From assembly GCF_009789195.1 (NCBI RefSeq), contig NZ_WSTC01000006.1, positions 8,126 through 72,125 on the forward strand: a stretch of 64,000 nt of DNA, given 5' to 3'. This stretch comes from Paenibacillus sp. MMS18-CY102. Lineage in GTDB: Bacteria; Bacillota; Bacilli; Paenibacillales; Paenibacillaceae. The notes under the pieces are model-generated. The model was not told where the DNA came from. It ran no database searches and saw only the letters and a list, made by a program, of their open reading frames with translations. Each line of letters opens with the position of its first letter. Position 1 is the first letter of the stretch. Both the position numbers and the translations under genes were made by a program. This document shows positions 5,378 through 39,064 of this stretch, one piece after another.

Positions 5378-6625
5378 TTAATGTTGCATCTTTTGAAGGT
5401 TCACCATTACATCGTTTTCAATTAATTGAATCAGATTTTCAATGCCGTTGGTGCGTTGCAGCAGATTGGCAACCTGAATACCTAATTGCGAATGATTAGA
5501 TTTTAAACGTTTCTCAATAGCAGAAGTAATTTTTGCTTCAATTTCATCCGGGTGAACGATTTCCCCAAGCTTTAATTGTACGGCTCTTTGTGCATTTAGC
5601 CTTTGTTCCTCGTGTTGTGGAATAACGATCATAGGAGTACCACACATTAACGCTTCCATGACCGTTGTATGGCCACCATGAATGATTGCCAAATCCGCAG
5701 CTTTCATTAGTTCTAAGGCTTGGTTTGTAAAGCTGATGATTTCAAGAATGGAGTCGGGATTGCTCCCTTTGAACTGTTTGATTTCTAGAGCTAATAAATC
5801 CGGATCAATATTTGGTCCAGTGATTACGTAATAATGAGCCTTTATGTTCCGAAGGCTATGAAGCAGTTTGATGTAATTCGCGAATCCCATCGCGGTTCCG
5901 CCGAATGTGATGAGGATTAGCGGCATTCCGTGGGGAGAAATAGAATTTTTCAACTGAGTCTTGGACGGTAGGTTATTCGGCTGATTTTTAATAAACGGAC
6001 CGGTATGATGGATTTCTCTAACTGAGTTTAGAACGATTTCTCTCATGCTTCGTGGCATGTGTGACAAATTATCAAAGGTTGAGAAGTCCGGAATAACCAT
6101 AATATCACCAAACAATTTTTGTATTGCATACTGTGGCGTCTCGAGCTCATTCAAGGTATCAATGACATCAGGGATCATTTGAGCTAAGGGATAAATAAAA
6201 AAATTCGTATTGTGCAGGGAGATGGATGGGATGTTATTCAAGGCAGAAGTTACGCCTGCAGACAGTCGGTAGTCGTGCAAAACCACATCAGGATTGAATT
6301 CCTTCATGAGCAATGTTTCTTCTTCGATACATCTTTTCAGATACTCGGGATTCGCTAATCGGCTCCTCGTCTTTGTCTGGCTTGAGGACTGCGTGCGTTT
6401 GGGTTCACGCTCAGGCGGCAAAGGCTCAATCTCTCGAATGGGCTTGCAAGTCAAGCCGGCTTGTTGAGGTATATGAAGAGCTTCTTCTGAACAGGCAAAT
6501 AGTACATCGTGTCCCCTATTTTTTAGGTGTACCGCGACTGACATGCTTCGGCTCAAATGACCGAGACCGTGGAAAAATGCTAGAACTAATATTTTTAGGT
6601 TGAGATTGGTTTCCATGATGATCAT
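5378..6625 (-). CDS. GT1-family glycosyltransferase (MGT/UDP-glycosyltransferase-like, GT28-type C-terminal domain)
   Basis: N-terminal region GLGHLSRSMSVAVHLKNRGHDVLF. C-terminal donor-binding region AADLAIIHGGHTTVMEALMCGTPMIVIPQHEEQRLNAQR. The gene follows the LLM gene at a 27-nt spacing on the same strand. Confidence 0.65.
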   Translation of the reverse strand: MIIMETNLNLKILVLAFFHGLGHLSRSMSVAVHLKNRGHDVLFACSEEALHIPQQAGLTCKPIREIEPLPPEREPKRTQSSSQTKTRSRLANPEYLKRCIEEETLLMKEFNPDVVLHDYRLSAGVTSALNNIPSISLHNTNFFIYPLAQMIPDVIDTLNELETPQYAIQKLFGDIMVIPDFSTFDNLSHMPRSMREIVLNSVREIHHTGPFIKNQPNNLPSKTQLKNSISPHGMPLILITFGGTAMGFANYIKLLHSLRNIKAHYYVITGPNIDPDLLALEIKQFKGSNPDSILEIISFTNQALELMKAADLAIIHGGHTTVMEALMCGTPMIVIPQHEEQRLNAQRAVQLKLGEIVHPDEIEAKITSAIEKRLKSNHSQLGIQVANLLQRTNGIENLIQLIENDVMVNLQKMQH

Positions 6626-9878: not shown

Positions 9879-11925
9879 AGTCGATCCTACCCAGTGGATC
9901 ATCTACCAAGTTCTAACTGACCGTTTTTATATTGGAAACTCCAAAGAAAATCAGATGTGTGCGCACCTAATCGATGATAGCGGTCATGACCTTTCGAAGT
10001 ACCTCGGTGGAGATTGGAGAGGGATTATCGAAAAAATTGAGGACGGTTATTTAACTGATATGGGTTTCAATGTAATCTGGATTTCTCAACCCGTTGAAAA
10101 TGTATTCGCCTTAAGAGAGAATGTGTCCTCGTATCATGGTTACTGGGCCCGGGATTTCAAACGGCCGAACCCGTTGTTTGGCTCCATGGAGGACTTCCGT
10201 GAATTGATTCGCATTGCTCATGAACATGATATGAAAATTGTAATTGATTTTGCCCCGCATCATACGTCTCCTGCGGAAGTTGGCGATCTCGGTTATATGG
10301 AAGATGGGGTCCTGCTTGATAATGGGAGAGCGATCGCTTCGTATAATTGGGATCCTCACAACTGTTTTCATCATGCTGGAGATAGTGATGAGGATTTTGA
10401 TACCTATGAAGATGGATTATACAAGAAGCTATACGGGTTAGCGGGCCTAAATGTTCAAAACGATATTGTGGATCGATACTTGAAAGAAGCAATATCGTTA
10501 TGGATCGACACTGGAATAGATGGAATTCGCATAGATGGGGTAAGGCACCTTCCGATTGGATGGTTAACGTCGTTTGTGCAAACGTTTGCTCGAGATGGAA
10601 GGCTATTTATTTTTGGTGAATGGTACCTTGGAAAGCATCGGAGGGATCCTCGAAACCCCCAGCTTGCAAATGAGAGTGGTATGGGGCTGCTGGATTTCAA
10701 GTTTGCAAACAAACTAAAGCAAATCATGCTTGAAAAAGAAGATGATTGGTCTGGTTTTGTGAGTATGCTCAACGTTACAGAGAAGGAGTATGAGCGTACG
10801 CATGAACTAGTTACGTTTATCGACAATCATGATTTGCCTAGATTTACAAGGGAGAATTCGATTGTTACGGACATTGCGCTTGTTGTTTTGTTAACAAGTC
10901 GAGGCATACCAAGTATTTATTATGGGACAGAGCAGTACATGACAGGTGCTTCTGATCCGGCTAATCGACAAATGATGAATTCATTCAATAAACAAACGCC
11001 AGCGTACAATATTATTCGGATTCTGTCCGGTTTGAGAAAACGGAATATGGCCATTGCTCAAGGGAAGACAAGTATACTGTATCATTCACCGGAAATCATA
11101 GTTTACCAAAGAGCATTTGGTGGGCACGTCGTTGTCGTTGCAACTAATCTGGGTACTACTAGCGTAGAGTTTATGTCCCTATACACGCAACTGCCTGAGG
11201 GAAGTTATAGCAATCTGGTTGGCGAATTTAGAGGTGAAAAGGAAGTAAATGTAGATAAGTTCGGTAAGATTGAAGCCATGGTACTTCACCCCTACGATAG
11301 TGTCGTTTTAGGAACAAGTGATCATTTTGAGTATCAGCCGGCAATCTCGCATATTTTCCCGGCGGTATCAAAGCGTGGAGACAAGGTTTGTATTTACGGA
11401 ACTGCTTTTGATAAGCAACAGGGAAGGGTCAAAGTAGGCACCGTTGAGGCTCATATACTGAACTGGCAAGATGACAGCATCGAAATTGTAGTACCGGAGC
11501 TTACTCCAGGGAAGCACCACGTTGAGATTACACGAATCGATACTGAATCGGCGGTGTATCAGCATTTTCGCATCAATACGGGCGAGCAAGTCTCTGTTCG
11601 CTTTATCGTTGATGAGGCATACGCGAATGATGATGAGCAAATCTACTTGATCGGAAACGTGTTTGAACTTGGAAATTGGGAACCGGCGAAAGCAATAGGA
11701 TCTTTCTTCAAAAAAGTGCTATATCAATATCCAACCTGGTATTACGACATAAGCGTACCGGCAGGAATAGAAATTCAATATAAATATATTAAGAAAAACT
11801 TCTCCGGGGAGGTCGTGTATGAAGACGGTGAAAATCATGTATGGGTTAGCCCAACTGATCAAACGGGAGAAGTTAGAGTTACATGGGGATGCCCAATAGG
11901 AGGTGAAGCGGATGATCGAAGTTAG
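9868..11925 (+). CDS. GH13 alpha-amylase-family enzyme with CGTase-like A-B-C-D(IPT)-E(CBM20) architecture, no signal peptide
   Basis: N-terminus YQVLTDRFYIGN is like the mature CGTase N-terminus. GH13 regions DFAPHHTSP, GIDGIRIDGVRHLP, GEWYLG and FIDNHD are present. The C-terminal domain looks CBM20-like (LIGNVFELGNWEPAKA...YPTWYYDISVPAG...EIQYKYIKK). The start overlaps the upstream gene by 11 nt. Confidence 0.7.
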   Translation: MNYRVDPTQWIIYQVLTDRFYIGNSKENQMCAHLIDDSGHDLSKYLGGDWRGIIEKIEDGYLTDMGFNVIWISQPVENVFALRENVSSYHGYWARDFKRPNPLFGSMEDFRELIRIAHEHDMKIVIDFAPHHTSPAEVGDLGYMEDGVLLDNGRAIASYNWDPHNCFHHAGDSDEDFDTYEDGLYKKLYGLAGLNVQNDIVDRYLKEAISLWIDTGIDGIRIDGVRHLPIGWLTSFVQTFARDGRLFIFGEWYLGKHRRDPRNPQLANESGMGLLDFKFANKLKQIMLEKEDDWSGFVSMLNVTEKEYERTHELVTFIDNHDLPRFTRENSIVTDIALVVLLTSRGIPSIYYGTEQYMTGASDPANRQMMNSFNKQTPAYNIIRILSGLRKRNMAIAQGKTSILYHSPEIIVYQRAFGGHVVVVATNLGTTSVEFMSLYTQLPEGSYSNLVGEFRGEKEVNVDKFGKIEAMVLHPYDSVVLGTSDHFEYQPAISHIFPAVSKRGDKVCIYGTAFDKQQGRVKVGTVEAHILNWQDDSIEIVVPELTPGKHHVEITRIDTESAVYQHFRINTGEQVSVRFIVDEAYANDDEQIYLIGNVFELGNWEPAKAIGSFFKKVLYQYPTWYYDISVPAGIEIQYKYIKKNFSGEVVYEDGENHVWVSPTDQTGEVRVTWGCPIGGEADDRS

Positions 11926-12907
11926 TCAACTAAGCAAAATGTACAAAATCGCGGATAAGAAGCCAGGGTTGATGGGAGCAGTTCAAAGCCTATTTCGACC
12001 GAAGTTTTATATTAAACAGGCCGTGGAAAATATTAGTTTTTCAATACAAAAAGGTGAGTTGGTCGGTTATATCGGAGCTAATGGAGCGGGGAAATCGACA
12101 ACGATAAAAATGTTATCGGGGATTATGACCCCTTCGTCGGGAGAGGTCCTGGTGAACGGCATTGAGCCGTATAAAAACCGGCAAAAGAATGCGGGGCAAA
12201 TCGGTGCTGTGTTCGGTCAACGAACGCAGCTGTTCTGGGACATTCCGGTTAGAGAATCCTACGAACTCCTAATGCACATCTATAAAGTTCCACCACAGCA
12301 GTTTAAACAAAATCTGGAGCAATTCGTGGAGACACTCGGATTGTCGTCTTTGTTAGGTATTCCCGTTCGTCAGCTTTCGCTCGGCCAAAAAATGAGATGT
12401 GAACTGGCTGCGGCTTTTTTACACGATCCATCGGTAGTCTTTCTCGACGAACCTACGATCGGGCTTGATATCTCCGTGAAATCGAAGATACGCTATTTTA
12501 TTCGTGAAATGAATCGTACGAGAGGGACAACTGTAATTTTAACCACACATGACATGCAGGATATCGAAGAGATTGTCAACCGTATCATTATTCTAGATCA
12601 AGGGAAAATCCTTTATGACGGCGACACTGGGGGCATTAAGGAGGACTTTGGAAATCAGCGTGTGATCGATTTCGATTTAACTTTTACAGATAACGACAGG
12701 ATCCCCATTGATATAACGGAGTTCGTATCGGTCATCCAGAAGGATCCTTCGAATGGGAAAATTACGCTATCATTCAATAATGGCGAAATAACGGCCGCGG
12801 AGGTTATTGCACGCATGATGTCCAAGTTTGAGGTTCATGATTTATCGATTACGGATACGCGGATCGAAGACATCGTAAAACGCTTGTATGAGAGAGAGGC
12901 ATCGTAA
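11912..12907 (+). CDS. ABC transporter ATP-binding protein
   Basis: Walker A GANGAGKST, signature LSLGQKMRCELAAAF and Walker B VVFLDEPT. ATG at 11912 after AGGAGGTG; it overlaps the CGTase-like gene end. Confidence 0.75.
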   Translation: MIEVSQLSKMYKIADKKPGLMGAVQSLFRPKFYIKQAVENISFSIQKGELVGYIGANGAGKSTTIKMLSGIMTPSSGEVLVNGIEPYKNRQKNAGQIGAVFGQRTQLFWDIPVRESYELLMHIYKVPPQQFKQNLEQFVETLGLSSLLGIPVRQLSLGQKMRCELAAAFLHDPSVVFLDEPTIGLDISVKSKIRYFIREMNRTRGTTVILTTHDMQDIEEIVNRIIILDQGKILYDGDTGGIKEDFGNQRVIDFDLTFTDNDRIPIDITEFVSVIQKDPSNGKITLSFNNGEITAAEVIARMMSKFEVHDLSITDTRIEDIVKRLYEREAS

Positions 12908-13697
12908 GTTGGGCGTTTATTGGAGATTTGCAAAGACCCAAGTGAAATTGGATGCGGCTTACTCGTTGTTGTACTGGTCCGGATTTTTGACCTCTCTAAT
13001 GAAGCTTTTCGTAATTTATTTTTTTTGGAGGGCCATTTTTGAATACCAGCCCACAATCAGTGGCATGTCATTCACCGAGACGTTGACGTACATGATTATC
13101 GCAACAGTTATCGTGAACTATGTATTCGGAGGCTCCAGTGATTTGGCCTCGATGATACGAGAGGGGAGTATTGCCATTGAATTGATGCGTCCCTATCATA
13201 CGCTACTTAAAATCATATCACTTGATATTGGAAGTAAAATTTCTCTGTTGGTCCGAGAGACACTACCAATGCTCGTGGTAGGGTATCTATTTTTACAAAT
13301 TGACTACCCACCGAGTATTGCACACATGCTGATATTTTTGGTTAGCCTGTTATTGGGTTTCTTTATTGGAAAAGAGTTTGAATTGTTGATTGGGTTAGCT
13401 TCCTTCTGGACGATCAATGATTGGGGGATGAGGCTGTTAAGAGGTGCTGTCGTCTTGTTTTTCTCCGGTGCGCTAATGCCTGTAAATTTATATCCACCCT
13501 GGCTAAAAAGTATTAATGCATATCTGCCTTTTCAGTCGATGGTATTTACACCGTCGGCCATTTATTCAGGCACAATGGAATGGGGGCAAATCGTTGTCGC
13601 CATGACTGCCCAAGTGGGTTGGCTTGTTATATTATTTTTCCTCGTTCGACTTATTTATAAAACTGCCTTGAAAAAAGTTGTCATCTTTGGCGGGTAG
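12888..13697 (+). CDS. ABC-2 family transporter permease
   Basis: Polytopic hydrophobic protein overlapping the ATPase stop. The true start may be TTG at 12909 (GAGAGAGG RBS). Confidence 0.5.
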   Translation: MRERHRKLGVYWRFAKTQVKLDAAYSLLYWSGFLTSLMKLFVIYFFWRAIFEYQPTISGMSFTETLTYMIIATVIVNYVFGGSSDLASMIREGSIAIELMRPYHTLLKIISLDIGSKISLLVRETLPMLVVGYLFLQIDYPPSIAHMLIFLVSLLLGFFIGKEFELLIGLASFWTINDWGMRLLRGAVVLFFSGALMPVNLYPPWLKSINAYLPFQSMVFTPSAIYSGTMEWGQIVVAMTAQVGWLVILFFLVRLIYKTALKKVVIFGG

Positions 13698-13713
13698 GGA
13701 GAGGTTGTCGCGG

Positions 13714-14499
13714 ATGTATTTACATTTGTATAGCCAGTTTTTTAAATGTCAGTTGAAAAACAAAATGGAGTTCAGAACAGATTTTCTGATCGGCATCCTA
13801 TCTGTACTTATCGTTCAGTCGACATCAATTTTGCTAATGAAGTTTGTTTTTGACCATATTCATTCGATTAAAGGCTGGACTTTTCAAGAGATTATGCTAA
13901 TTTACGGGGTCGCAGCAATGGGAAGGGCTATTCATCACGTGTTTTTTGATAATCTTTGGACGTTGGGCTCCCAGTATATTCGACCAGGAAACTTCGACCG
14001 GTTGTTAATTCGACCAATAAACCCGCTTTTTCATTTAATCGCCGAACGAGTTCAATTGGATGGAATCGGACAAATGGTCATGGGAATCATTATGCTAAGT
14101 TACTCATTATCCAATCTAGATTTGTCCTGGGGTTTTTTAGAGGTCACTATACTCCTCGTTATGATCGTTTCGAGTGGGTTAATCTTTGCTGCTGTTAACT
14201 TATTCGTGGCGACATTTTCTTTTTGGATGGTGGATAGTCTTCCTATTATGACGGCAGTTTTTCATCTAAGTGATTATGCTCGTTATCCAATTTCGATCTT
14301 TAACAAATGGATTCAACTGTTGTTGACATGGATAATTCCCTATGGTTTTGTTGCTTTTTATCCAGCAACGGTATTATTAAAATCCTCTGACTTTCAGTAC
14401 ATAGGTTTGTTGTCTCCACTAGTTGCAATCTTTTTATGTGGTTTTGCGTATTTGTTTTGGTTAGTTGGGCTTCGTTCGTTCACGTCGACAGGAAGTTAA
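13714..14499 (+). CDS. ABC-2 family transporter permease
   Basis: Second polytopic membrane protein. The start MYLHLYSQFF has a GGGAGAGG RBS. Confidence 0.5.
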   Translation: MYLHLYSQFFKCQLKNKMEFRTDFLIGILSVLIVQSTSILLMKFVFDHIHSIKGWTFQEIMLIYGVAAMGRAIHHVFFDNLWTLGSQYIRPGNFDRLLIRPINPLFHLIAERVQLDGIGQMVMGIIMLSYSLSNLDLSWGFLEVTILLVMIVSSGLIFAAVNLFVATFSFWMVDSLPIMTAVFHLSDYARYPISIFNKWIQLLLTWIIPYGFVAFYPATVLLKSSDFQYIGLLSPLVAIFLCGFAYLFWLVGLRSFTSTGS

Positions 14500-14887
14500 T
14501 CAACAGAAGGAAAATGTTAACGGGTTTGAAATGGCGATAAATGGTGTCTAAGAGGAGGGACTGATGAAGCGCGAGTTTTCGTAGGAATCGGTTGCTATAG
14601 CGTGTGACCTGTATTTAATAGCAAGATGAGTCAGTGAAAGGGGGTGATTAAACGAAAAAAATTATGTAAATTGTTCAGACAAAAAGCGACATGAGTGCAC
14701 CGCTCACGTTGGTAGAAACGATGTACTGTTCGGACCGAAAATCCTAAGGAGTGCGGACGAATTAACTAATTGATACCGGGTAGATTATTGAGTAGTATTT
14801 ATGAAACTTTCGAAAATCGGGTGTCAATATTGTACGTAAGTTGCGAATCACCTAACTTATAAAATGAATTAAAGGAGTTTACTCATT

Positions 14888-16036
14888 ATGGAGAACGTAC
14901 TTATCAATAAGGTAGATATGTTGGAGTCTTTGTACAATGAAAATGAAATTAAACAATTCTCAGCGTTAACGAATACGACAAGAAGATTATCAAATAAAGA
15001 TGAAATTACAATTCAAGCTAATCACCTTTGTCAATCAATCGATGTCGACATTTATTTGGAAGGAAACGTTACTGTTGACATGATTAATATGAAAGATTAT
15101 CCTTACCGTTCCATTGAAAACACGATAGAGTATATCTATGAAATCAAAAAATCCAATATAAACACCGTGCTGCTGCACCTTGTTGGAAATGAGTACGGTC
15201 AAGATCCATATAAGGTCCTTCAGGATCACGTACAGGCAATTCAACAAGTGCGTAAGCATTTCTCAAAAGAGGAATTGAACATTACGATTGATCCGTTCAT
15301 GACTGCATTCAACCAAGATGGCAGCTGGGGTGTTAAGGATGAATTCGGGAAATTAAAATATCTTGAAACCTTGAATCTATTGGCGGAAATTGCTACAGAT
15401 TATAGTTTAGCTGGCGCTGATGGGATTATCACCTTGGGAAGGGTCGAGGGTGAAGTAGAAGTAACCAAAAAAGCTTTAGCAAAGATCAGTTCCAACATGA
15501 AGATTAAGTCGTTCTCACAAAATACCGAAACTACGAATGCGTACATGTATCTTGAAAATTTACCCGATCAATTGGAAACAGGCCAAAAAATTTTAGTAGG
15601 CAACCTAACAGAGATGAATCTGCGAACGATTTTGGATATCCATGAAGGGGCAGATGTCATTATCGTAAAACCTATTGAAAACTTCCATCTCATTACGCTG
15701 ACTTTGGATTTCATTACGAATACGCAATCTGTAGCAGCATTTTTGAACAGCGCGAAGGCAAAAGAACTGCTTGAGGCTAATCCGTTCGTGAAACATAAAG
15801 TGGACCAAATCCTAGCTGACTTGGATGCTTTTGAGGCTAAGTGTGCAGGTGTAACGGTTGGAGCCTACTCTGTATCCGGAACTTATTTTATACATAAATC
15901 ATTCGAAAAAGAGAAGGGAGGCAGATTTTCGTTGGGATTAATGGATGAGCTTCTTAAGAACGCCATCTCAGCTGCAGGGGATCGTCTGGACAGTATTCTT
16001 GATCGTAATGCAATGTGGATTATCCAAAATAAATAG
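14888..16036 (+). CDS. divergent porphobilinogen-synthase (HemB/ALAD)-family protein; first Schiff-base Lys replaced
   Basis: The C-terminal half aligns with HemB. AGADGIITLGRVEG matches GADxxAPSDMMDGRV. EGADVIIVKPIENF matches GADxxMVKP. GAYSVSGTYF matches AYQVSGEYAM. DPFMTAFNQDGSWG resembles the Asp-rich Mg-type metal site. The SYSxK Lys position instead reads SFSQN. Confidence 0.5.
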   Translation: MENVLINKVDMLESLYNENEIKQFSALTNTTRRLSNKDEITIQANHLCQSIDVDIYLEGNVTVDMINMKDYPYRSIENTIEYIYEIKKSNINTVLLHLVGNEYGQDPYKVLQDHVQAIQQVRKHFSKEELNITIDPFMTAFNQDGSWGVKDEFGKLKYLETLNLLAEIATDYSLAGADGIITLGRVEGEVEVTKKALAKISSNMKIKSFSQNTETTNAYMYLENLPDQLETGQKILVGNLTEMNLRTILDIHEGADVIIVKPIENFHLITLTLDFITNTQSVAAFLNSAKAKELLEANPFVKHKVDQILADLDAFEAKCAGVTVGAYSVSGTYFIHKSFEKEKGGRFSLGLMDELLKNAISAAGDRLDSILDRNAMWIIQNK

Positions 16037-16097: not shown

Positions 16098-18326
16098 ATG
16101 AGTTGGCACGTTCAACGTAAAGGACGAGTCAACTCATTTGTATATGAGCCTTTAAATGAAAAACTATTAAGTGGGGTAATCGTTATTAAAACATTGATAA
16201 TTGATAACTACGATTCGTATACCTATAACATTTTTCAGCTTGTGGCCAAAATCAGTGGACAGGAACCGATCGTTATTCGTAACGATCAGATGAGCTTTGC
16301 TTCACTGCAACGTTTCGATTTTGATAACATTATCATTTCACCTGGACCAGGACGACCGGAAATTCCGATAGATGTCGGATTATCTGCTGAGGTGTTACTT
16401 CACATGGAAGTTCCGATATTAGGCGTGTGCCTGGGTCACCAAACGCTGGCTTACGTTTGCGGTGGCGAGGTAATGCATGCACCCGAGATCTTTCATGGTC
16501 GATTAAGTGAGGTGTTTCATGATGAATTGGGGCTGTTTACAAATATTCCTCAAGGCTTCAAGGTTGTTAGATATCATTCGCTGATCGTAAATGATGGTTT
16601 ACCCGCTAGCTTGGAGAAAACAGCGTGGACCTCGGATGGCGTGATAATGGGATTGAGACATAGAGAGAAACCTCAATGGAGTGTCCAGTTTCATCCAGAA
16701 TCTATTTGTACAGAATATGGTGAACAATTGTTTCAAAACTTCCACGATTTAACGATAAAGTATTATACGGATAAACAAATGATCGATCGGCTTGAGAAAG
16801 AGCAGGAAACTGCAGCATCCCGAGAAAACAGTGATGGCGATACGGATTCCAGCGGCAAATACGAAGTGATCGTAAGGGAACTGCCTGCTTACTATGATCC
16901 CGAAGAGGTATTTGTCCAACAGATGGCCGACCAGCCTTACGCTTTCTGGCTGGACAGCAGTAAAATAGAACCGGGGCGTTCAAGATATTCATTTATTGGG
17001 GCGAATACAGGGCCCTTCCGAAAAGTTATCCGATACCGTACAGCAGATCAACAGCTGGAAGTAACGACGTCCGAGGGAACGAAACAATGGACAGCTTCAA
17101 TCTTCGATTATTTAGAGCATGAACTTAAAGCATTTAGGTGCGACCAAAAGCTTCCGTTCGATTTTAACGGTGGGTTTGTAGGCTTCTTTGGCTATGAGCT
17201 TAAAGAAGAGTGTGGAGGCAATCGCGTTCATGCTTCAGATATCCATGACGCAATGTTTATCTTTGCTGATCAGTTTGTTGCGTTTGACCACGAACTTCGA
17301 AAAACTTACCTCGTTTCGTTAACCGATGATGTTACCCGGGCAGTAGCTCATACATGGTTAGATGAGTTTGAGCGGCATCTTCAAAACTTGTCCGCTTCAA
17401 AAGAATATTCACCGCAATATGTCAATCAAACGGTTGAGTTTCAATTAAGCAGGAGTTATAAGGAATATATCCAGGATCTCAATCAATTGAAGCAGTATTT
17501 AGTCGAAGGTGAGAGTTATGAAGTGAATCTGACAAACCGGATACACACAGGTCCAATCAAAGATACATTGCACACTTATCGCGTGTTACGCAAGGTAAAC
17601 CCAGCCCCTTATTCTGCATATTTACGTTTTGATCAAGTTGCTATTTTGTGCAGTTCTCCTGAAAAGTTCATTCAGGTCTCATCGGATCGAAGCGTGGAAG
17701 CAAAACCAATTAAGGGAACATTGCCACGTGGTAAATCGCCTGACGAGGATCAGACGCTGAAGCAGCAGCTTTTGACGAGTGTAAAGGATTTCTCGGAGAA
17801 TCTGATGATCGTCGATCTGATTCGAAATGATCTAGGTGTCGTTTGCGAAGTCGGATCGGTCCACGTGCCGAAATTGATGGAAGTAGAATCATTTGAGACG
17901 GTGCACCAGCTAGTTTCGACTATTAAAGGGAAATTGAAGCAAGAGGTGTCGGTCGTGGAATGCATTAAAGCGGGCTTTCCGGCCGGATCCATGACGGGTG
18001 CGCCGAAGATCAGAACGATGGAAATTATAGATACGTTAGAAAAGGAGCCAAGAGGAGTATATTCAGGTACCTTGGGATTACTTAGCTTAAATGGATCAGC
18101 GGATTTGAATGTCGTTATACGAACGATTGTTTGTACGCCTGAGAAAACAACGATTGGAGTTGGAGGCGGAATTACGATTCAGTCAAATGCAGATTCGGAA
18201 TACGAAGAAATGCTGCTTAAAGCGAAAGCGTTAATGAACGCTATAGTTGTCGCATTAAACGGAGAGAAAAGAGTAGTCAACTATGTTATTCATGGTGCCC
18301 GTGAGTTAGTAAGTTTCTTACATTAG
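16098..18326 (+). CDS. fused glutamine amidotransferase + chorismate-binding enzyme (PabA-PabB-type aminodeoxychorismate synthase-like)
   Basis: N-terminal class-I GATase (IIDNYDSYTYNIFQ, GVCLGHQ). C-terminal MST/chorismate-binding domain (SYEVNLTNR, GAPKIRTMEII, PRGVYSGTLG, GGGIT). Confidence 0.7.
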   Translation: MSWHVQRKGRVNSFVYEPLNEKLLSGVIVIKTLIIDNYDSYTYNIFQLVAKISGQEPIVIRNDQMSFASLQRFDFDNIIISPGPGRPEIPIDVGLSAEVLLHMEVPILGVCLGHQTLAYVCGGEVMHAPEIFHGRLSEVFHDELGLFTNIPQGFKVVRYHSLIVNDGLPASLEKTAWTSDGVIMGLRHREKPQWSVQFHPESICTEYGEQLFQNFHDLTIKYYTDKQMIDRLEKEQETAASRENSDGDTDSSGKYEVIVRELPAYYDPEEVFVQQMADQPYAFWLDSSKIEPGRSRYSFIGANTGPFRKVIRYRTADQQLEVTTSEGTKQWTASIFDYLEHELKAFRCDQKLPFDFNGGFVGFFGYELKEECGGNRVHASDIHDAMFIFADQFVAFDHELRKTYLVSLTDDVTRAVAHTWLDEFERHLQNLSASKEYSPQYVNQTVEFQLSRSYKEYIQDLNQLKQYLVEGESYEVNLTNRIHTGPIKDTLHTYRVLRKVNPAPYSAYLRFDQVAILCSSPEKFIQVSSDRSVEAKPIKGTLPRGKSPDEDQTLKQQLLTSVKDFSENLMIVDLIRNDLGVVCEVGSVHVPKLMEVESFETVHQLVSTIKGKLKQEVSVVECIKAGFPAGSMTGAPKIRTMEIIDTLEKEPRGVYSGTLGLLSLNGSADLNVVIRTIVCTPEKTTIGVGGGITIQSNADSEYEEMLLKAKALMNAIVVALNGEKRVVNYVIHGARELVSFLH

Positions 18327-18338: not shown

Positions 18339-18388
18339 TATGCGGTCCGTTTTCAGAAGAGGAAACGGGTCGCACACTTTTTCCAATT
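18339..18388 (+). terminator. probable rho-independent terminator
   Basis: Imperfect hairpin tgcggtccgttt...aaacgggtcgca followed by ctttttcc. Confidence 0.35.
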
Positions 18389-18399: not shown

Positions 18400-18792
18400 T
18401 TATTCAAAAGTCAGTTTTAGTCGGGGGCCAATCTCGCTAAATCCCATGTTCTTATAAAAAGAAAGTGTACGCCCCCACAGTTGGGCATTGGGTGCTCCGA
18501 CTTCAATACGTCTCCAACTATGGGTTTTTCCGTAATCGATGACGCATTGCAGCAGAACCTTCCCGACATGCATGGATCTATGCTCGGGGGCAACATAGAG
18601 CTCTTGAATGGTTCCAATTTTACCACAGGCATATAAAGCATACGTTTCAAAAGTAGTTATAACCCCGATACAAGTTTCTGAATGATCCAAAGCAACATAG
18701 GCTATATAATGATCGATGTTGGATAGCAGGGATTCACATGTTTGTTGGATAGAGAACTCGTCGATTATTATGCCCGACAATTCCTCCAGCAA
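18400..18792 (-). CDS. GNAT-family N-acetyltransferase (short; possibly 5'-truncated, TTG start)
   Basis: GNAT core QELYVAPEHRSMHVGKVLL. The open frame continues about 35 codons upstream with no ATG. Abuts the IS remnant. Confidence 0.4.
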   Translation of the reverse strand: MLEELSGIIIDEFSIQQTCESLLSNIDHYIAYVALDHSETCIGVITTFETYALYACGKIGTIQELYVAPEHRSMHVGKVLLQCVIDYGKTHSWRRIEVGAPNAQLWGRTLSFYKNMGFSEIGPRLKLTFE

Positions 18793-19664: not shown

Positions 19665-21836
19665 TCAGCTGTACATGGTCACGACATTATGGATAATCTT
19701 CAATCCCGAATCCCCTCTAGTAGTCAAAATGGACTCCGGATGGAATTGAACTGCGGAAATTGGCAATGTTTTATGTTCGACAGCCATGACTACCTGATCA
19801 TCTGATACAGCAATTATCTTTAAGCAATCGGGGACTGTGCTGGCATGAATCGAATGATATCGGCTGGCCATAAATACTTTCGGTAAGTCATCCCACAATC
19901 GGCTTTCATTAGAGGTATGAATAGGCGAAGATTTCCCATGCATTGGATACTCAAGGTAATCTAGGGTTCCTCCGAAGTATTCGACAATGCCTTGAAGTCC
20001 GAGGCATACTCCGAAAATCGGGATGTTATTGCTGATACATAAACCTATTGTATCGTTTAGGGTGAATTCGCTAGGCGTACCGGGTCCGGGCGATAGTACG
20101 ACTAAATCGAATGACGAAGCAGGGTCTTCTAATATCTTCTTGGCAAGCGGTTGCCGAGCTGTCAAAATATCAGCACCTGTTTGTTTGAAGTAGTTGCCCA
20201 ATGTATGGACAAAGGAATCCTCGTGATCCACAATTAGAATTCTCTTTGCCGTTTTCTGTAACGGAAGCGGGGGAGCTTCATGCTTAAGATCGTGCTGGCT
20301 CCCCTTAATGGCCTGGACTAATGCAGCTGCCTTTGTTACGGTTTCTTCTTCTTCATCTGCGGGGATGGAGTCAAATAGAAGTGTCGCCCCAACGCGAATG
20401 TCTGCAATACCATTTTGAATTCGCATGGTCCGTAGCGTAAGTCCTGTATGCAAATCCCCGTTGAACGAATAGTATCCAACAGCGCCGCCATACCATCTTC
20501 GACGTGAACTTTCATTCTGTTCAATCCATTTAATTGCGTTGCGTTTAGGGGCACCAGTAACTGTTACGGCCCACATGTGGCTGATAAATGCGTCCAAAGC
20601 ATCCACCTCTGGCAAGAGATGACCCTCAACATGATCGACGGTATGAATAAGATGCGAGTACATTTCAAGCTGACGACGACCGATAACATTAACAGAGCCG
20701 GGGACACAAATTCTGGACTTATCATTTCTATCCACGTCTGTGCACATAGTTAACTCCGCTTCATCCTTCGTCGAACTTAGCAACTGCAATATCCGATCAG
20801 CATCCTCAATAGCGTTGCTGCCCCTTCTTACCGTGCCGGAAATTGGACAAGTTTCCACTCGGCTGCCTTTTACGCGGACATACATTTCCGGTGAAGATCC
20901 AACCAAATGCTCCGTGCCTAAATTAATAATAAACCCATAAGGGCTAGGATTAATTTCGCGGAGCCTTGAAAAAATGTTGGAGGGTGCGTCTTTGCATTTT
21001 TCGAAAAATGAGTGGGTTGGGACGACTTCAAACAAATCGCCACGTTTAAAGGATTCTACAGCTTTTTCGACAAGTTTTGCGTAATTTCCCTTTATGTACT
21101 GAGGTGGTAGGTTCCCATCTGTTGTCAATTGGGAAAGAACGTTAACTTCACTGGAGCGTTCTATTCCTTCCGTGCTAGCGCCCTGAAAGATAAAATCATA
21201 GGACAACAAGTAAGCACACTCTTTTTGATGATCAACAATTGTTAATTCATCAGGCAGGTAGAGTACCATATCTGGGAGCTTCTCTGAGCGATTCTGTGAT
21301 AGCTCCACCGATTCTAGATTAAACACCAAATCGTAGCCAAAAGCACCGTACAGACCTAAATAGGAATCCTCAGGAGCGTAGAAAAGTTCTTTAATAGCAC
21401 GTAGTACAGTAAATATAGAAGGCTGTTTCGTGCGGTCTTCTTCATTAAATAAGTCATCACTTGTCTTAATTGAGCCTTGAAGCAGGTAATTCGTAAAGGT
21501 AAGATGCTCAATGACAGAAAGGGCTTCGATATGTTTATGTAGTTCATTTAGAATTATTTCACCTCGGGAATTCAAGGCGCTAATTTCAAATTGCTTTCCA
21601 TATGAGCGGAGTTCGAGAGGAGGATTGATAAATCCGATATCCCAGCGTGAGTAACGGCCTGGATATTCATAACTACTGGAGAAGAGTGCTCCTTTTTGTT
21701 GATCGATGAAGGCTAGAATCCTGTCGGAAGCAGTTGTTGGTTCAATAGGGGTTGCGGCTCTCCTAATTTGAAATCCAGCCTGAGTTGTGTACAAAATTTC
21801 AGAGGGATTAACGACCAATTTGGAAACAATACTCAT
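19665..21836 (-). CDS. fused chorismate-binding (TrpE-like, N-terminal) + glutamine amidotransferase (C-terminal) enzyme; anthranilate synthase or PhzE-type ADIC synthase
   Basis: The N-terminal MST domain is about 500 aa. The C-terminal GATase has KRILIVDHEDSFVHTLGNYF and GVCLGLQG. AAAGGAGG RBS. Confidence 0.7.
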   Translation of the reverse strand: MSIVSKLVVNPSEILYTTQAGFQIRRAATPIEPTTASDRILAFIDQQKGALFSSSYEYPGRYSRWDIGFINPPLELRSYGKQFEISALNSRGEIILNELHKHIEALSVIEHLTFTNYLLQGSIKTSDDLFNEEDRTKQPSIFTVLRAIKELFYAPEDSYLGLYGAFGYDLVFNLESVELSQNRSEKLPDMVLYLPDELTIVDHQKECAYLLSYDFIFQGASTEGIERSSEVNVLSQLTTDGNLPPQYIKGNYAKLVEKAVESFKRGDLFEVVPTHSFFEKCKDAPSNIFSRLREINPSPYGFIINLGTEHLVGSSPEMYVRVKGSRVETCPISGTVRRGSNAIEDADRILQLLSSTKDEAELTMCTDVDRNDKSRICVPGSVNVIGRRQLEMYSHLIHTVDHVEGHLLPEVDALDAFISHMWAVTVTGAPKRNAIKWIEQNESSRRRWYGGAVGYYSFNGDLHTGLTLRTMRIQNGIADIRVGATLLFDSIPADEEEETVTKAAALVQAIKGSQHDLKHEAPPLPLQKTAKRILIVDHEDSFVHTLGNYFKQTGADILTARQPLAKKILEDPASSFDLVVLSPGPGTPSEFTLNDTIGLCISNNIPIFGVCLGLQGIVEYFGGTLDYLEYPMHGKSSPIHTSNESRLWDDLPKVFMASRYHSIHASTVPDCLKIIAVSDDQVVMAVEHKTLPISAVQFHPESILTTRGDSGLKIIHNVVTMYS

Positions 21837-22216: not shown

Positions 22217-22930
22217 ATGCAAGAAATTAGTGAATCAAGAGTGAACAATTTTGAAAATTCTCCGATTGAGGAAAATAGCTTTGAGCTAATGGAGAGCATG
22301 TATTTATCGGATGGAGAAATTCCATTATTGCCTTTGCATATGGTCCGATTGAAGGAGTCATCGAACAGCCTTAGCTACAACTATGATTATGATCGAATTA
22401 TTGGTGAAGTAAAGCGTAATTTAGATAACCTTCTTAGTGGAAATTATAAGTTTAGGGTGACGCTAAGTAAAGCAGGTATACCGACAATTACCTATGAGAA
22501 ATTGGATGGGACAAGACCATTTGCAAAGGAAGAAATTCCTCCTGATGCTAAGATATGTACGTTCTGTTTTGCCGCAGGACCTGTCGACTCCTCAAATCTG
22601 TTTCTTTACCACAAGTCTACAAACCGCCGGTTGTATGAACTGATTTATGAAGAAAGAAATGAAAATGACGATGTTTTAATGTATAACGAGAAGAACGAGA
22701 TTACCGAATTCACTAGAGGGAATATTGTAATTGAACTTGATTCGCAGTTAGTGACGCCACCTTACGAATGCGGTCTCATTCCTGGTGTTTTGAGGTCTCA
22801 GCTTCTTAACTCAGGCGTACTACAAGAAAAGAAACTTAGCTTCACTGATGTAAAACGAGCATCTAGAGTATGGCTCTTAAACAGTGTCGGTGGCTGGCAC
22901 AAGTTTAAAATCAACACCTCTTTGTTGTAA
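22217..22930 (+). CDS. class-IV (fold-type IV) PLP enzyme, aminodeoxychorismate-lyase-like
   Basis: 237 aa; LYHKSTNRRLY matches the conserved HKTxNR motif of PabC-type lyases/class-IV aminotransferases. Confidence 0.55.
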   Translation: MQEISESRVNNFENSPIEENSFELMESMYLSDGEIPLLPLHMVRLKESSNSLSYNYDYDRIIGEVKRNLDNLLSGNYKFRVTLSKAGIPTITYEKLDGTRPFAKEEIPPDAKICTFCFAAGPVDSSNLFLYHKSTNRRLYELIYEERNENDDVLMYNEKNEITEFTRGNIVIELDSQLVTPPYECGLIPGVLRSQLLNSGVLQEKKLSFTDVKRASRVWLLNSVGGWHKFKINTSLL

Positions 22931-22983: not shown

Positions 22984-23889
22984 TTGTATATTGCCGTCGG
23001 GGATCTTATAAAGAATAGCAGAACGGTGGGGGTCTCGGCTTTTGATCATGGTCTATTATACGGATTGACAATATTTGAATCATTTCGCACCTATAATCGC
23101 ATCCCATTTTTACTAGGTGATCATTTAACCCGCATGAATAATGCTTTGCGTGACTTGAGAATCAGCTACATAGCTTCTGAAGTAAAAGTTCAAGAGCGAA
23201 TCAACAAACTGCTGGACATGAATAACCTAAGAGATGCTTATTTCCGTTTTATCGTGACGCCCGGTGAACAATCCCTCGAGTTGCCTATTCAGCCCTATAA
23301 CAAACCTGTAGATATCCTTTTGATCCAGCCACTAGAACCTTACAAAACGCGCCTATATAATGAAGGTATAACTTTAAAATTATTGAATCAACGAGCCGGC
23401 AGGGTAGATGGACATCAGAGTTTTAGAACGAGTAGTTGGTTTAATACCATCTTGGGTAGAAGAGAGTTATATCAATTGTGTGAAAAAAAACCATCAGGAT
23501 GGCTGATGCTGGATTCTTTGGAAGGACTACAGCTTACTTTGGATGGCTCAATTATCGGGGGGATTTCCTCCAATGTGTTATTTAGAATAGGTAATGTTTG
23601 GTATACGCCTGCTATAGAGACAGGTGCATTGCCTGGTATTACGCGTTCTTGGGCAATCCAAACATTAAAGAATGAGGGAATAGAAGTATATGAGGGCTTC
23701 TATCAATGGGAAGATATTCTTCACGCTGATGAAATCATGCTTACAAACTCTAACTATGAACTAATACCAGTAAACAAGTTAATGGGGATTGATGGTAGTG
23801 AGGTGAGTGTAGGTAACGGCATGGCGGGGCTGATTACCCGGAAGCTACTTAAAAAGTACAGTGATGAAGCTACAAGTAACTGTCCCTAA
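22984..23889 (+). CDS. class-IV aminotransferase family protein (branched-chain aa aminotransferase/ADC lyase-like)
   Basis: 301 aa; FDHGLLYGLTIFE matches the FDHGxxYGDGVFE N-terminal motif. TTG start after a G-rich RBS. Confidence 0.6.
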   Translation: MYIAVGDLIKNSRTVGVSAFDHGLLYGLTIFESFRTYNRIPFLLGDHLTRMNNALRDLRISYIASEVKVQERINKLLDMNNLRDAYFRFIVTPGEQSLELPIQPYNKPVDILLIQPLEPYKTRLYNEGITLKLLNQRAGRVDGHQSFRTSSWFNTILGRRELYQLCEKKPSGWLMLDSLEGLQLTLDGSIIGGISSNVLFRIGNVWYTPAIETGALPGITRSWAIQTLKNEGIEVYEGFYQWEDILHADEIMLTNSNYELIPVNKLMGIDGSEVSVGNGMAGLITRKLLKKYSDEATSNCP

Positions 23890-24911: not shown

Positions 24912-25553
24912 TTATGAAACGCTGACACTGCTTTTATTTAACTTCTTGAAAGCAGCGTATTCACGATTTGATCGAATAAAATCTAATATTAAATCGGCGC
25001 ATTCATTTGGGCTCAAGGCTTCGGTATTTAGTTCAATGTCATACTCATTAAAGCGATAGATTGCATCATACTGTGCGATTGCTAATCCACTCTGTCGATC
25101 TCCCCGCAGATTTTCTCTTCTCATAAGTTCCTCTTTCGAGCAAGTTACGCCTACGAATAGTACAGGACGATCGTTTAATAAATCTAGACAAGCATTAAAC
25201 CGCGCTTCATTATCATTGACTGTATCTACAACGACGTGGATCCCCTTTTCCGACATAAATTTAACGGTTGAATAAAATAAAGTAACTAATGAATCAATAA
25301 TTAATTGAATCGAAACCTCCACATCATCTTCGCCATCGGCTGATGTTGAGCATTTAGTATTAATAAAATCAATGTAGTCATGAAACATTCCGTGAATAAA
25401 ATCATCAATGGATAAATGGCGAAATGAGATTTCTTTTTGATTTAATAGCTCTGTCGATATGGAAGTCTTTCCGGAACTTGAAGTTCCATTTAGAAAAACG
25501 ATTATCCCTTGCTTCAATTTAGTCACCCCTGCGAATGTAGTAAAATTATCCAT
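24912..25553 (-). CDS. chloramphenicol-phosphotransferase-like (CPT family) P-loop kinase
   Basis: N-terminal Walker A IIVFLNGTSSSGKTSI and an about 200-aa size typical of CPT-like AAA kinases. Confidence 0.55.
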   Translation of the reverse strand: MDNFTTFAGVTKLKQGIIVFLNGTSSSGKTSISTELLNQKEISFRHLSIDDFIHGMFHDYIDFINTKCSTSADGEDDVEVSIQLIIDSLVTLFYSTVKFMSEKGIHVVVDTVNDNEARFNACLDLLNDRPVLFVGVTCSKEELMRRENLRGDRQSGLAIAQYDAIYRFNEYDIELNTEALSPNECADLILDFIRSNREYAAFKKLNKSSVSVS

Positions 25554-31451: not shown

Positions 31452-32564
31452 ATGTTTAAGAAGATGATCGTCAAAACGGACGAACGGGGATTATTGTTTA
31501 AGAAGGGCAGCTATGTGAAGCATTTGCAGCCCGGCGTGCATCGTCTGGCTACATTTTCCGATGATGAAGTTGTGCTATTGAATGTGACGAAGCCTTTCGC
31601 CGTGCAGGGGAAGGATCTGAATTTATTTCTTAAGGATGAGCAATTGCTAACGGAGCTGACCGTTATTAACGTGCAGGACCATGAGTACGTGCTTCATTAC
31701 GAGGATGGCAAGTTCGTTGCGCTGCTTACTCCGGGCAAATACGCTTTCTGGAATGTGCTGAAGCAGCATGATTTTAAGCGAGTCGATATCCGCCAGCCGA
31801 TGGTTGGCGCCGAGATCGATGAAGCCATATTTGCCAAAGTCGTGGGCTACCTCTACGCGTCCGAAGTGGCGAGCCACGAGACGGGCGTGCTGTTCTACAA
31901 CAATGTGATGCAGAGGGAGCTTGCGCCGGGGAAATACTATTTCTGGAGAGGGCCTGTGCAGGCAGCTGTAAAGACGGTGGATTTGCGCCACCAACAGCTG
32001 GACATGACGGGGCAAGAGATTATGACGGAGGATAAGGTGACGCTTCGCTTAAACTTCGTCTGCCAGTACAAAATCGTTGAGCCGCTGCGCGCACTGGAGT
32101 TCAAAGCGTTCGAGGATCAGGTGTATATTCTGTTGCAGCTGATTTTGCGGGAATATGTCGGGACCTTGAAGCTCGATGACCTGTTGCGGATGAAGCAAGA
32201 GATCGCGGCGTTCGTGCTGTCCCGCCTGAATGAGAAGAGCGAGGAGTACGGGGTGAAATTTTTTGCTGCTGGCGTGAAAGATATTATTTTGCCGGGGGAC
32301 ATCAAGGAGATTCTGAACACGGTGCTGCTGGCAGAGAAGAAGGCGCAAGCGAACCTGATTACCCGTCGCGAGGAAACAGCGTCCACCCGCAGCCTGCTTA
32401 ACACAGCGAAGCTGATGGATGAGAACCAGACGTTGTTCCGCTTGAAGGAGCTGGAGTTCCTTGAGAAAATTTGCGAGAAGATCGGGACGATCTCGCTCAC
32501 GGGCGGAGGCAATCTGCTGGAGCAGCTGAATTCGTTGCTTGCAGGGGCGGGTGCGAAGCAGTAG
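31452..32564 (+). CDS. SPFH/band-7 (stomatin/flotillin-like) domain protein with about 170-aa N-terminal extension
   Basis: The C-terminal half has a band-7 signature (ILPGDIKEILNTVLLAEKKAQANLITRREETAS) and a coiled-coil tail. Start MFKKMIV with a GAGGGGA RBS. Confidence 0.55.
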   Translation: MFKKMIVKTDERGLLFKKGSYVKHLQPGVHRLATFSDDEVVLLNVTKPFAVQGKDLNLFLKDEQLLTELTVINVQDHEYVLHYEDGKFVALLTPGKYAFWNVLKQHDFKRVDIRQPMVGAEIDEAIFAKVVGYLYASEVASHETGVLFYNNVMQRELAPGKYYFWRGPVQAAVKTVDLRHQQLDMTGQEIMTEDKVTLRLNFVCQYKIVEPLRALEFKAFEDQVYILLQLILREYVGTLKLDDLLRMKQEIAAFVLSRLNEKSEEYGVKFFAAGVKDIILPGDIKEILNTVLLAEKKAQANLITRREETASTRSLLNTAKLMDENQTLFRLKELEFLEKICEKIGTISLTGGGNLLEQLNSLLAGAGAKQ

Positions 32565-32615
32565 CGGCAATAGAGTAGAGCTGGTGGAAGGTGGTTGCTT
32601 TCGGGACATTTTTTC

Positions 32616-32798
32616 TAACGGACTCAGGAGCCGTTATTCCCCTCCAAAAGCACCCGTTACAAATGTAACGGACCCAGCAGCCGTTATTTAGCGATTTTGC
32701 TGCCTCGTGGGGGGCGAATTGGCCAAATAGCGGCGCCTCGGTCCGTTAGCGCGAAAAAGTGACTGATTTTGATCAAATAAGGGCTGCTGGGTCCGTTA
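32616..32798. repeat. array of four TAACGG-N9-CCGTTA palindromic units (copy A of an about 190-bp element)
   Basis: Units at 32616-32636, 32666-32686, 32728-32748 (tagcgg variant) and 32778-32798 (taaggg variant). A 26-nt stretch, ttctaacggactcaggagccgttatt, is identical to the second locus. Confidence 0.6.
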
Positions 32799-32990
32799 GA
32801 ATCTCCAACATACGGTTTCTGTTTGTTTTACAACTCAAATAAGGGTGTCCTAAAGTCTACGCTTTCGGGACACTCTTATTTGTTTGTCTTCAAAAAAAGC
32901 TGGTTTTGCACGATAATAAAGAATATTCCTCTTACTGGAAATGACCGTTTAGAAAAGGAATCGAGAAATTGTGTTTAAGGAGGAACTGAG

Positions 32991-34058: not shown

Positions 34059-34110
34059 CTGTAGGTTTGTGAAGGAGCCCGCACTCCAACAGCAAATCGA
34101 AGCATTCCTG

Positions 34111-34359: not shown

Positions 34360-34451
34360 TGAGGTGCAAGCCACAAAGAAACCCCCGCGTCTAAATAATG
34401 CGAGGGTCTCTTTGCATGCAATAGGGCCATTCAAAACACTCGGATGGTCTC

Positions 34452-39062: not shown

Positions 39063-39064
39063 TC

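Follow-up and report, generated by a model that had tools for sequence, protein, structure and literature searches.

The HemB-like Gene and Its Product

A 64,000-nucleotide stretch of DNA from Paenibacillus sp. MMS18-CY102, called the window here, carries an open reading frame (ORF) of 382 aa at 14888..16036 (+) whose product has the fold of porphobilinogen synthase (PBGS; HemB or ALAD), followed 61 nt downstream by a gene for a fused PabA-PabB aminodeoxychorismate (ADC) synthase. The HemB-like protein is the one from which we define a separate, single-lysine family. Its start codon, ATG 14888, stands 10 nt 3′ of a Shine-Dalgarno (SD) sequence, AAAGGAG (14871..14877, +). The corresponding GenBank entry is 100% identical but counts 372 aa, starting at Met11 of our ORF, and is labeled "delta-aminolevulinic acid dehydratase"; the protein is also 100% identical to family member P0001.

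The homology of this protein to PBGS is beyond doubt, as the original prediction, made from the sequence alone, had proposed for both fold and ancestry. Pfam PF00490 (ALAD) matches it with 59.1 bits (E = 5e-16; gathering score, 24.6), and hhalign aligns it with E. coli HemB at a probability of 97.6%. An AlphaFold2 (AF2) model has a mean pLDDT of 91.7, and the top 50 PDB matches that Foldseek returned for it are all PBGS (best E = 2e-17), with TM scores of 0.72-0.79 when normalized to the target. The NCBIfam porphobilinogen synthase equivalogs are missed, with NF006762 scoring 47.9 against a cutoff of 297 and NF009923 scoring 18.5 against 507.

The motifs DPFMTAFNQDGSWG (residues 135-148), AGADGIITLGRV (175-186), SFSQNT (208-213), NAYMYL (217-222), VKP (260-262), and SGTY (330-333) are all present in the protein; among them, the GADxI...GRV and SGTY/SGEY blocks stand where the original prediction had placed them. 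Its account of the protein's length requires revision. An N-terminal extension of about 60 aa had been proposed, with only the C-terminal two-thirds aligning to ALAD. Residue 31, however, already pairs with residue 8 of E. coli HemB, so the N-terminal extension is small, at ∼23 aa (∼20), or ∼13 aa counted from the NCBI start; most of the extra length lies in an internal insertion. The insertion is helical and specific to the family; it adds ∼43 aa between VKP and SGTY (residues ∼266-319; 15683..15844, +) and is reflected in a Lys261-to-Ser330 spacing of 69 residues in the window protein versus 26 in E. coli HemB. Judged by its sequence, the whole protein is PBGS-like, N-terminal arm included.

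In the 64 kb of the window, tblastn detected no canonical hemB; its sole match is the HemB-like ORF itself (E = 0.12). Neither here nor at the 37 related loci described below does a hem gene lie beside the HemB-like gene. The GC content is 0.38 at 14-16 kb and about 0.40-0.45 over the first 30 kb; further along, at 32001-40000, it rises to 0.51-0.53. The long gaps upstream were also considered as the site of a riboswitch or leader, a reading that was rejected: Rfam gave no match at E ≤ 1 over 11-25 kb of the window and nothing relevant in seven related loci, the upstream DNA of relatives can be aligned only at the SD/start region, and the window's 5′ region is no more stably folded than shuffled sequences (z = 0.5).

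Active Site Compared with Canonical Porphobilinogen Synthase

Residue counts were taken from a MAFFT alignment of 57 family members and 21 canonical PBGS sequences, and the active-site assignments rest on alignments to PBGS, with E. coli numbering. For the A- and P-site lysines, three independent alignments (phmmer to PDB, profile-profile to E. coli HemB, and MAFFT) agree. The P-site Schiff-base Lys, K247 in E. coli, is retained as Lys261 of VKP (codon 15668..15670, +) in 57/57 members, as had been predicted. Opposite the A-site Schiff-base Lys, K195, stands Asn212 of SFSQNT (codon 15521..15523, +), again in 57/57, which agrees with the predicted loss of this residue; the canonical set has the A-site Lys in 19/21 sequences. 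Realignment thus leaves Lys261 as the only catalytic lysine that is kept, and the family alignments contain no conserved Lys near Asn212 within its strand.

Further replacements surround these two positions. At the A site, the FYGPFR region has given way to NAYMYL, as anticipated, with the variable position Leu222 at the carboxylate binder Arg205. Lys234 (55/57) falls at the second A-site carboxylate binder, Gln220, in MAFFT, a pairing that is ambiguous since HMMER places it opposite the lid Lys217 of GD(R/K)K. The three metal-ligand columns of PBGS hold Phe137, Thr/Leu139, and Trp147; the last of these (codon 15326..15328, +; 56/57) stands at the third ligand, which is Cys130 in E. coli and Asp in P. 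aeruginosa, so that both the Cys-type (Zn) and the Asp-type ligands are replaced. The predicted metal/Asp-rich loop is present as a DPF...DG motif at 135-148 but is not a functional metal loop, because its third ligand position is an essentially invariant Trp. At the P site, the carboxylate-binding Tyr (E. coli Y312), present in 21/21 canonical sequences, is Arg373 (codon 16004..16006, +) in 57/57 members, and Thr/Ser332 (49/57) occupies the position of Glu275 in SGEY.

Other elements of the site persist. Ser330 (56/57), equivalent to the P-site carboxylate binder Ser273, Tyr327 (57/57; Tyr270), and Asp135 (56/57; Asp118) are retained, and the pocket of Ser330 and Arg373 can probably still bind an anion, possibly a different one. 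The lid segment, residues 211-230, has the lowest pLDDT of the AF2 model, matching the mobile lid of PBGS. The family has also gained invariant polar residues with no PBGS counterpart, namely Arg185, Glu189, Tyr219, and Gln233 (each 57/57) and Glu214 (56/57). Some 35-37 columns of the family alignment are invariant. Since Lys261 and the new polar active-site residues are held at identities down to 28%, the active site appears to have been rebuilt rather than to be decaying.

Because the A-site Lys, the A-site carboxylate binders, the metal ligands, and the P-site Tyr are all replaced, and because the protein scores 48 bits where the PBGS equivalog requires 297, the protein is almost certainly not a porphobilinogen synthase. 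Sequence and structure prediction thus lend strong support to the original proposal of a HemB-fold enzyme whose product is not porphobilinogen.

Extent and Rarity of the Family

Members of the family have 360-410 aa, the insertion after VKP, and the signature FSxNxE...TGQKIxxGN...VKPxE...YxVSG...(D/G)R(N/S), all of which are found in the window protein. The family is rare and sharply delimited from HemB. A word-indexed search of 5.8 billion proteins yielded only 21 clusters; when 185,579 species, each represented by one genome, were scanned for the motif, 17 loci emerged, in Bacillus, Paenibacillus, Priestia, Streptomyces, an Actinomycetota metagenome-assembled genome (MAG), Xenorhabdus, Cellvibrio, and Dyadobacter; the Nocardia vulneris member came from a protein search. 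An exhaustive profile search of 1.84 billion representatives returned 58 sequences at E ≤ 1e-30, with scores falling from >200 bits within the family to <60 bits for ordinary PBGS of ∼325 aa. In a rough neighbor-joining (NJ) tree, the family is monophyletic and separated from E. coli HemB by a single long stem. A tblastn search of PLSDB gave no plasmid-borne copies, NCBIfam has no model for the family, and our search of the literature for PBGS-like or HemB-like paralogues found no description of it, only Zur-regulated HemB2 isozymes.

Sequences outside the family were also encountered. P0076 and P0085 (323-330 aa, 90-121 bits) form a second divergent PBGS-like clade, canonical in length, that scores between the family and ordinary PBGS. 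Their A-site Lys is replaced (YAANFAS and SSIHIGS), their P-site Lys and P-site Tyr are retained, and they read TLGR/SLGR, as the window family does, and VSKEY where PBGS has VSGEY. A 4739-aa protein, P0083, matches the profile in 15 short stretches at the DPF...WG loop (positions 116-147); this is probably a repeat that matches spuriously.

Neighboring Genes in the Window

The gene directly downstream of the HemB-like gene, as the original prediction had noted, encodes a 742-aa fused PabA-PabB (16098..18326, +) that exceeds the ADC synthase cutoff (TIGR00553, 364.5 > 328.4) and reads AKPIKGTLPRG. It thus contains the PIKGT motif, whose Lys we take to be catalytic as K274 of E. coli PabB. The two genes are probably bicistronic, and a terminator-like hairpin of 14 pairs (18341..18374, +; a pattern match only) closes the unit. 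Upstream lies an ABC exporter composed of an ATPase and two ABC2_membrane_6 permeases (11903..14499, +). The same trio stands beside the HemB-like gene in loci L005 and L044, and its ATPase recurs in L015/L016.

At a distance of +3.6 kb, a 723-aa fused TrpE-TrpG anthranilate synthase (AS) of the clade 3 type (19665..21836, −) scores well above the equivalog cutoffs (NF010081, 1058 > 645; TIGR01815, 995 > 739) and is the partner most widely conserved in the window's subclade. We know of no reliable residue marker that would tell AS from aminodeoxyisochorismate (ADIC) synthase activity in a fused TrpE(G). Two class IV genes follow: a short PRK07546-like protein, probably of the ADC lyase type (22217..22930, +), whose domain is fused to PabB in L039, and a protein of the class IV aminotransferase fold resembling the ADC lyase PabC (22984..23889, +; NF005800, 215 < 308). 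A cupin protein is also encoded downstream. The membership of a GNAT N-acetyltransferase (18400..18792, −) is uncertain, as other loci have no conserved copy.

About 1 kb past the class IV genes, at 24912-25553 (−), lies a chloramphenicol phosphotransferase-like (CPT) protein. It may be of note, as chloramphenicol is derived from ADC, but such proteins are probably common. The Streptomyces loci have an EryCIII/MGT-type glycosyltransferase upstream, a homologue of which is encoded in the window at 5378-6625 (−). The long codirectional block at 42013-63673 (+) may be a separate biosynthetic cluster. Encoded in it are two PPDK_N/PEP-utilizing-domain proteins (42828-44423 and 48664-50670), followed by an ABC exporter at 54951-56780 and, at 60333-62504, by an AMP-binding protein that matches a condensation domain in part.

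Chorismate Enzymes and Exporters at Related Loci

We compared the neighborhoods of 37 non-redundant loci, with flanks of ∼10 kb. Within 10 kb of the HemB-like gene, 21 of them (19/35, plus L044 and L045), from four phyla, encode an MST-family chorismate enzyme; our own estimate of the chance expectation, from the few MST genes per genome, is ∼2%. The link to chorismate enzymes, which had been drawn from a single locus, is therefore a conserved trait of the family. MST partners occur in all three subclades of the rough NJ tree and are of three kinds: a fused AS, a PhzE-type ADIC synthase directly downstream, or, as in the window, an ADC synthase. ADC synthase directly follows the HemB-like gene in the window and its two closest relatives; across the family, the deeper partners are AS and PhzE-type ADIC synthase rather than ADC synthase alone. 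Exporters, which the original prediction did not consider, are as constant among the partners as the chorismate enzymes. EamA proteins are found in 8 loci and MFS proteins in 8, with a further EamA in L018 and a further MFS in L045.

In the window's subclade, the order HemB-like then PabAB is repeated in the two closest relatives. L044, whose protein is 77% identical, contains genes for a ligase, a peptidyl carrier protein (PCP), an AMP-binding protein, two ABC2 permeases, ABC_tran, the HemB-like protein, PabAB, and TrpE(G) (−). The Bacillus cereus locus L045 comprises TrpE(G) (−), HemB-like, PabAB, isochorismate synthase (ICS), MFS, 3-deoxy-D-arabino-heptulosonate 7-phosphate (DAHP) synthase/chorismate mutase, and chorismate synthase. 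Elsewhere in the subclade, the gene is partnered by a fused AS, and an EamA exporter and a GerE-type regulator are often present too. A proteobacterial metagenome locus (L031) reduces this to a cassette of HemB-like, TrpE(G), and EamA genes beside LuxR/LuxI.

In distant subclades, a PhzE-type gene begins 52-499 nt 3′ of the HemB-like gene (L020, L021, L022, L028, L036, and L041), sometimes accompanied by an amine oxidase. The PhzE homologue matches PDB 3R74 over its full length with 436 bits, versus 63 bits to TrpE; the match in L038 is weak (28%). At L028:88-7458, and likewise in L029, the genes encode a HemN/HutW-like radical S-adenosylmethionine (SAM) protein, a tryptophanyl-tRNA synthetase (TrpRS) paralogue (TIGR00233, 242 > 177), a VioA-like amine oxidase, a 98-aa ORF, the HemB-like protein, and a PhzE-like protein. 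This operon is tryptophan-themed, and its TrpRS is possibly a self-resistance gene. The Dyadobacter locus combines PabAB, HemB-like, PhzE-like, KASIII-like, AMP-ligase, FeeM-like, HDO-like, ICS, and phosphopantetheinyl transferase (PPTase) genes; PabAB adjoins the HemB-like gene in L022, and ligase, PCP, KASIII-like, or PPTase genes occur in L005, L044, and L022.

Five loci (L018, L037, L038, L039, and L040; e.g., L037:7202-14133) share an operon of HAD, HemB-like, AfsA, FAD monooxygenase, aldo/keto reductase (AKR), and MFS genes. Either PabB-PabC with PabA or PabA with PabB is inserted in two of these operons, and in the Cellvibrio locus of this type TrpE(G), triosephosphate isomerase (TIM), and EamA lie alongside. 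AfsA was rejected as a general partner because it is confined to this single derived subclade. ICS, DAHP synthase, and chorismate synthase were likewise rejected, the first being present only in L045 and L022 and the other two only in L045.

Loci with an exporter only comprise a Nocardia locus (MFS), L030 (MFS), three Bacillus loci (EamA), and Streptomyces loci (MFS), where the MFS gene adjoins or is fused to the HemB-like gene. In Streptomyces gossypii, the HemB-like sequence and an upstream MFS form one 775-aa frame, by fusion or a missed stop, on two scaffolds (L024 and L025:8753-11080), so that the locus is present twice in this assembly. In the Actinomycetota MAG (L020:9836-11065), the HemB-like gene is split into ORFs of 230 and 143 aa by a frameshift or an assembly error, and the adjoining PhzE-like gene is split as well.

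Nothing recognizable lies beside the HemB-like gene of Xenorhabdus. At L001:8662-11104 (Xenorhabdus indica), this gene and two 102-aa ORFs resemble an inserted island, with flanks that we take to be btuF and mtn from the E. coli gene order; neither a chorismate enzyme nor an exporter is nearby. Two candidate sources of dedicated δ-aminolevulinic acid (ALA) supply were rejected. The Aminotran_3 protein beside Paenibacillus loci is ArgD/GABA-AT-like rather than HemL, and the hemL near the Xenorhabdus copy looks like housekeeping synteny, presumably the btuF-mtn-dgt order of E. coli.

Proposed Function

The alignments describe a neofunctionalized PBGS fold in which the P-side apparatus appears to be kept and the A side replaced. 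We see an even chance that the protein is a single-lysine Schiff-base enzyme of specialized metabolism that acts with aminated chorismate products and whose own product is exported; any particular chemistry is much less secure than this general assignment. In the mechanism we propose, Lys261 would form a Schiff base (iminium) with a ketone substrate, the anionic tail of which would be held by Ser330 and Arg373. The ketone may be ALA-like or triose-phosphate-like. Because the Tyr-to-Arg and Glu-to-Thr replacements would make the tail pocket more positive, a phosphate tail, as in a ketone of the dihydroxyacetone phosphate (DHAP) type, may be as suitable as the carboxylate of ALA. An anionic-tail ketone in the retained P site would also fit the AfsA/HAD/AKR cassette, which uses DHAP chemistry.

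The second substrate would be met by an A side that has been wholly replaced by Asn212, Arg185, Glu189, Glu214, Tyr219, Trp147, and Gln233-Lys234. Co-encoded glutamine-dependent chorismate aminases are the likely co-workers: in the window, the ADC synthase of the same operon, the fused AS, and the nearby PabC-like lyases; in other phyla, the PhzE-type ADIC synthase directly downstream. The second substrate could thus be an aminated chorismate product such as ADC, ADIC, anthranilate, or p-aminobenzoate (PABA). This substrate might supply a nucleophile with no need of an A-site lysine (an amine, or a preformed enamine or enol carbon), which would attack the iminium at Lys261; a condensation that closes a ring in the manner of PBGS would come next. 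The small-metabolite product would leave through the adjoining ABC, EamA, or MFS transporter. The DAHP synthase and chorismate synthase of L045 suggest a biosynthetic flavor, as do the ligase/PCP/KASIII-like/PPTase and LuxR/LuxI contexts.

Several points weigh against this proposal. Sixteen of the 37 loci have no MST enzyme within 10 kb, so either primary metabolism supplies the chorismate-derived substrate there or the link is facultative. Lys261 would find no carbonyl in ADC, ADIC, or the aminobenzoates, and a second, further substrate must therefore be assumed. AS, ADC synthase, and ICS together, as in L045 and L022, are unusual for a single product and would fit resistance equally well. 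Finally, a second Schiff-base lysine may have moved to the lid, as Lys234.

One specific form of the proposal, which we regard as rather improbable, is a heterocycle synthase that reuses only the ring-closing half of the PBGS reaction. A preformed enamine or enol carbon would attack an α-substituted, anionic-tail ketone activated by Lys261 to form a five-membered ring. The ketone could be a triose-phosphate-derived N-aryl aminoketone or an acyl-DHAP; the attacking carbon might come from an arylamine such as anthranilate, PABA, or ADIC, through its ortho position, or from a β-ketoacyl-DHAP ester, through its active methylene. The Tyr-to-Arg and Glu-to-Thr changes in the pocket for the tail point to a ketone of the triose-phosphate type, as do the contexts with AfsA, TIM, and HAD genes. 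With arylamines, a single enzyme would carry out a Bischler/Knorr-type conversion of chorismate-derived amines to indole-like benzopyrroles, with no need of the tryptophan pathway; a tryptophan mimic as the product would fit the TrpRS paralogue and VioA-like oxidase of the L028 operon.

Alternative Explanations

The chorismate enzymes may instead reflect self-resistance, an unlikely but substantial alternative. Here the HemB-like enzyme alone would make a toxic antimetabolite out of primary metabolites, the AS, ADC synthase, ICS, TrpRS, and GNAT proteins would be insensitive copies or detoxifiers, and the exporters would confer immunity. Feedback-insensitive AS and resistant TrpRS are classical resistance determinants to tryptophan analogues. 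The exporter is the only near-constant partner, many loci pair the HemB-like gene with an exporter only, the type of MST partner varies, and in L045 and L022 the three housekeeping-type MST activities are all duplicated together. The genuine TrpRS paralogue of the L028 operon and the GNAT of the window cluster would also be explained. Resistance accounts poorly, however, for the PhzE-type partner of six or seven loci, which has no housekeeping role to protect, for DAHP synthase and chorismate synthase, which look like precursor supply, and for the aryl-acid ligase/PCP genes, which imply further processing of aminobenzoates; the GNAT, moreover, is not conserved elsewhere.

Lys261 could also act directly on the chorismate products: it would capture, as a Schiff base of pyruvate, the enolpyruvyl side chain that ADIC, ADC, and isochorismate carry, and release trans-2,3-dihydro-3-hydroxyanthranilate (DHHA), anthranilate, PABA, or salicylate, so that the protein would be a non-homologous replacement of PhzD, PabC, or PchB-type enzymes. 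This would account for all MST products that keep the enolpyruvyl group (those of PhzE-type enzymes, ADC synthase, and ICS), and for the PhzE-type loci, where no PhzD or PhzF family member was seen among the annotated neighbors; the predicted carboxylate-binding pair Arg373/Ser330 also adjoins the Schiff-base Lys. The commonest partners in the window's subclade, however, are full AS equivalogs that themselves remove pyruvate, two PabC-like genes are already present in the window, and the exporter-only loci would go unexplained. To our knowledge, Lys-mediated cleavage of an enol ether has no precedent, and we consider this alternative quite unlikely.

The loss of half of the original catalytic residues would suit a dead pseudoenzyme (a scaffold, a regulator, or a binder of ALA or another ligand), and adjacency to chorismate genes might carry no functional meaning. 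Both ideas are very unlikely given the ∼35 positions, Lys261 and the new polar residues among them, that are invariant down to 28% identity, and the enrichment of MST neighbors, seen in four phyla and in tightly spaced operons. That the protein is a metal-independent but functional PBGS isozyme, as its ALAD fold and Pfam match, its public annotation, and the HemB2-like absence of zinc cysteines might imply, is scarcely credible, since HemB2 as described loses its Zn ligands only (PMC2770081), whereas this family also has no A-site Lys, Arg205, Gln220, P-site Tyr, or metal ligands of either type, reaches 48 of 297 bits on the equivalog, and has hem context in none of 37 loci.

Significance

Few known enzymes are as conserved as PBGS, which is usually taken to have one function only. 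The family reported here is a branch of the PBGS fold that had not been described, is misannotated at present, and has ties to chorismate amination. As a conserved offshoot spread across phyla, with half of the catalytic dyad gone and the second subsite rebuilt, it would be a clear neofunctionalization of this fold. It would also probably bring with it a new reaction and, in Bacillus, Paenibacillus, Streptomyces, Nocardia, Xenorhabdus, Dyadobacter, and Cellvibrio-like bacteria, a new class of exported metabolites that derive from chorismate. The label "delta-aminolevulinic acid dehydratase" on its genes can mislead metabolic reconstructions. The small cassettes of HemB-like, AS or PhzE, and exporter genes are easy targets for heterologous expression, and the motif TGQKI[LQ][VPI]GN is a handle for genome mining.

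Comparison with Known Systems

One subclade of the family resembles the AfsA butenolide/furan pathways (AfsA, reductase, and phosphatase; MmfLHP), as its operons hold a γ-butyrolactone/furan enzyme set. The window cluster differs in having no AfsA, and the AfsA link belongs to a single derived subclade; we know of no PBGS-fold protein in the known AfsA pathways. The distant subclades recall the phenazine-type ADIC pathway through their operon partner, a PhzE homologue, and phenazine assembly, like PBGS, condenses two α-aminoketones. They depart from that pathway in that none of the PhzD, PhzF, PhzB, and PhzG families was seen among the annotated neighbors of the HemB-like loci, and our literature search found no PBGS-fold protein described in any ADIC pathway.

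ThiG, Pdx1, and MfnB are Schiff-base TIM barrels in which a single Lys forms an imine with a keto-phosphate on the way to a five- or six-membered heterocycle, and Pdx1 works with a class I glutaminase. Their likeness to the HemB-like family is offered as a mechanistic analogy only.

The Zur-regulated, zinc-independent HemB2 paralogues, which are expected to remain PBGS and to work with Mg/K (Haas et al. 2009, PMC2770081), are likewise encoded by hemB-like genes without zinc-binding cysteines. The present family differs from them in having lost residues essential to PBGS and in being linked to chorismate enzymes and exporters rather than to zinc homeostasis genes.

From PBGS itself, the family is set apart by the Asn in place of the A-site Lys, the replacement of Arg205, Gln220, and the metal ligands, the change of Tyr312 to Arg, SGTY rather than SGEY, the 43-aa insertion after VKP, the absence of hem context, and a rare and patchy rather than near-universal distribution. 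What it shares with PBGS is the (β/α)8 fold with its N-terminal arm, the VKP Lys, the YxVSG motif with the P-site Ser, the Asp at position 118 of the E. coli enzyme (Asp135 here), and the flexible lid.

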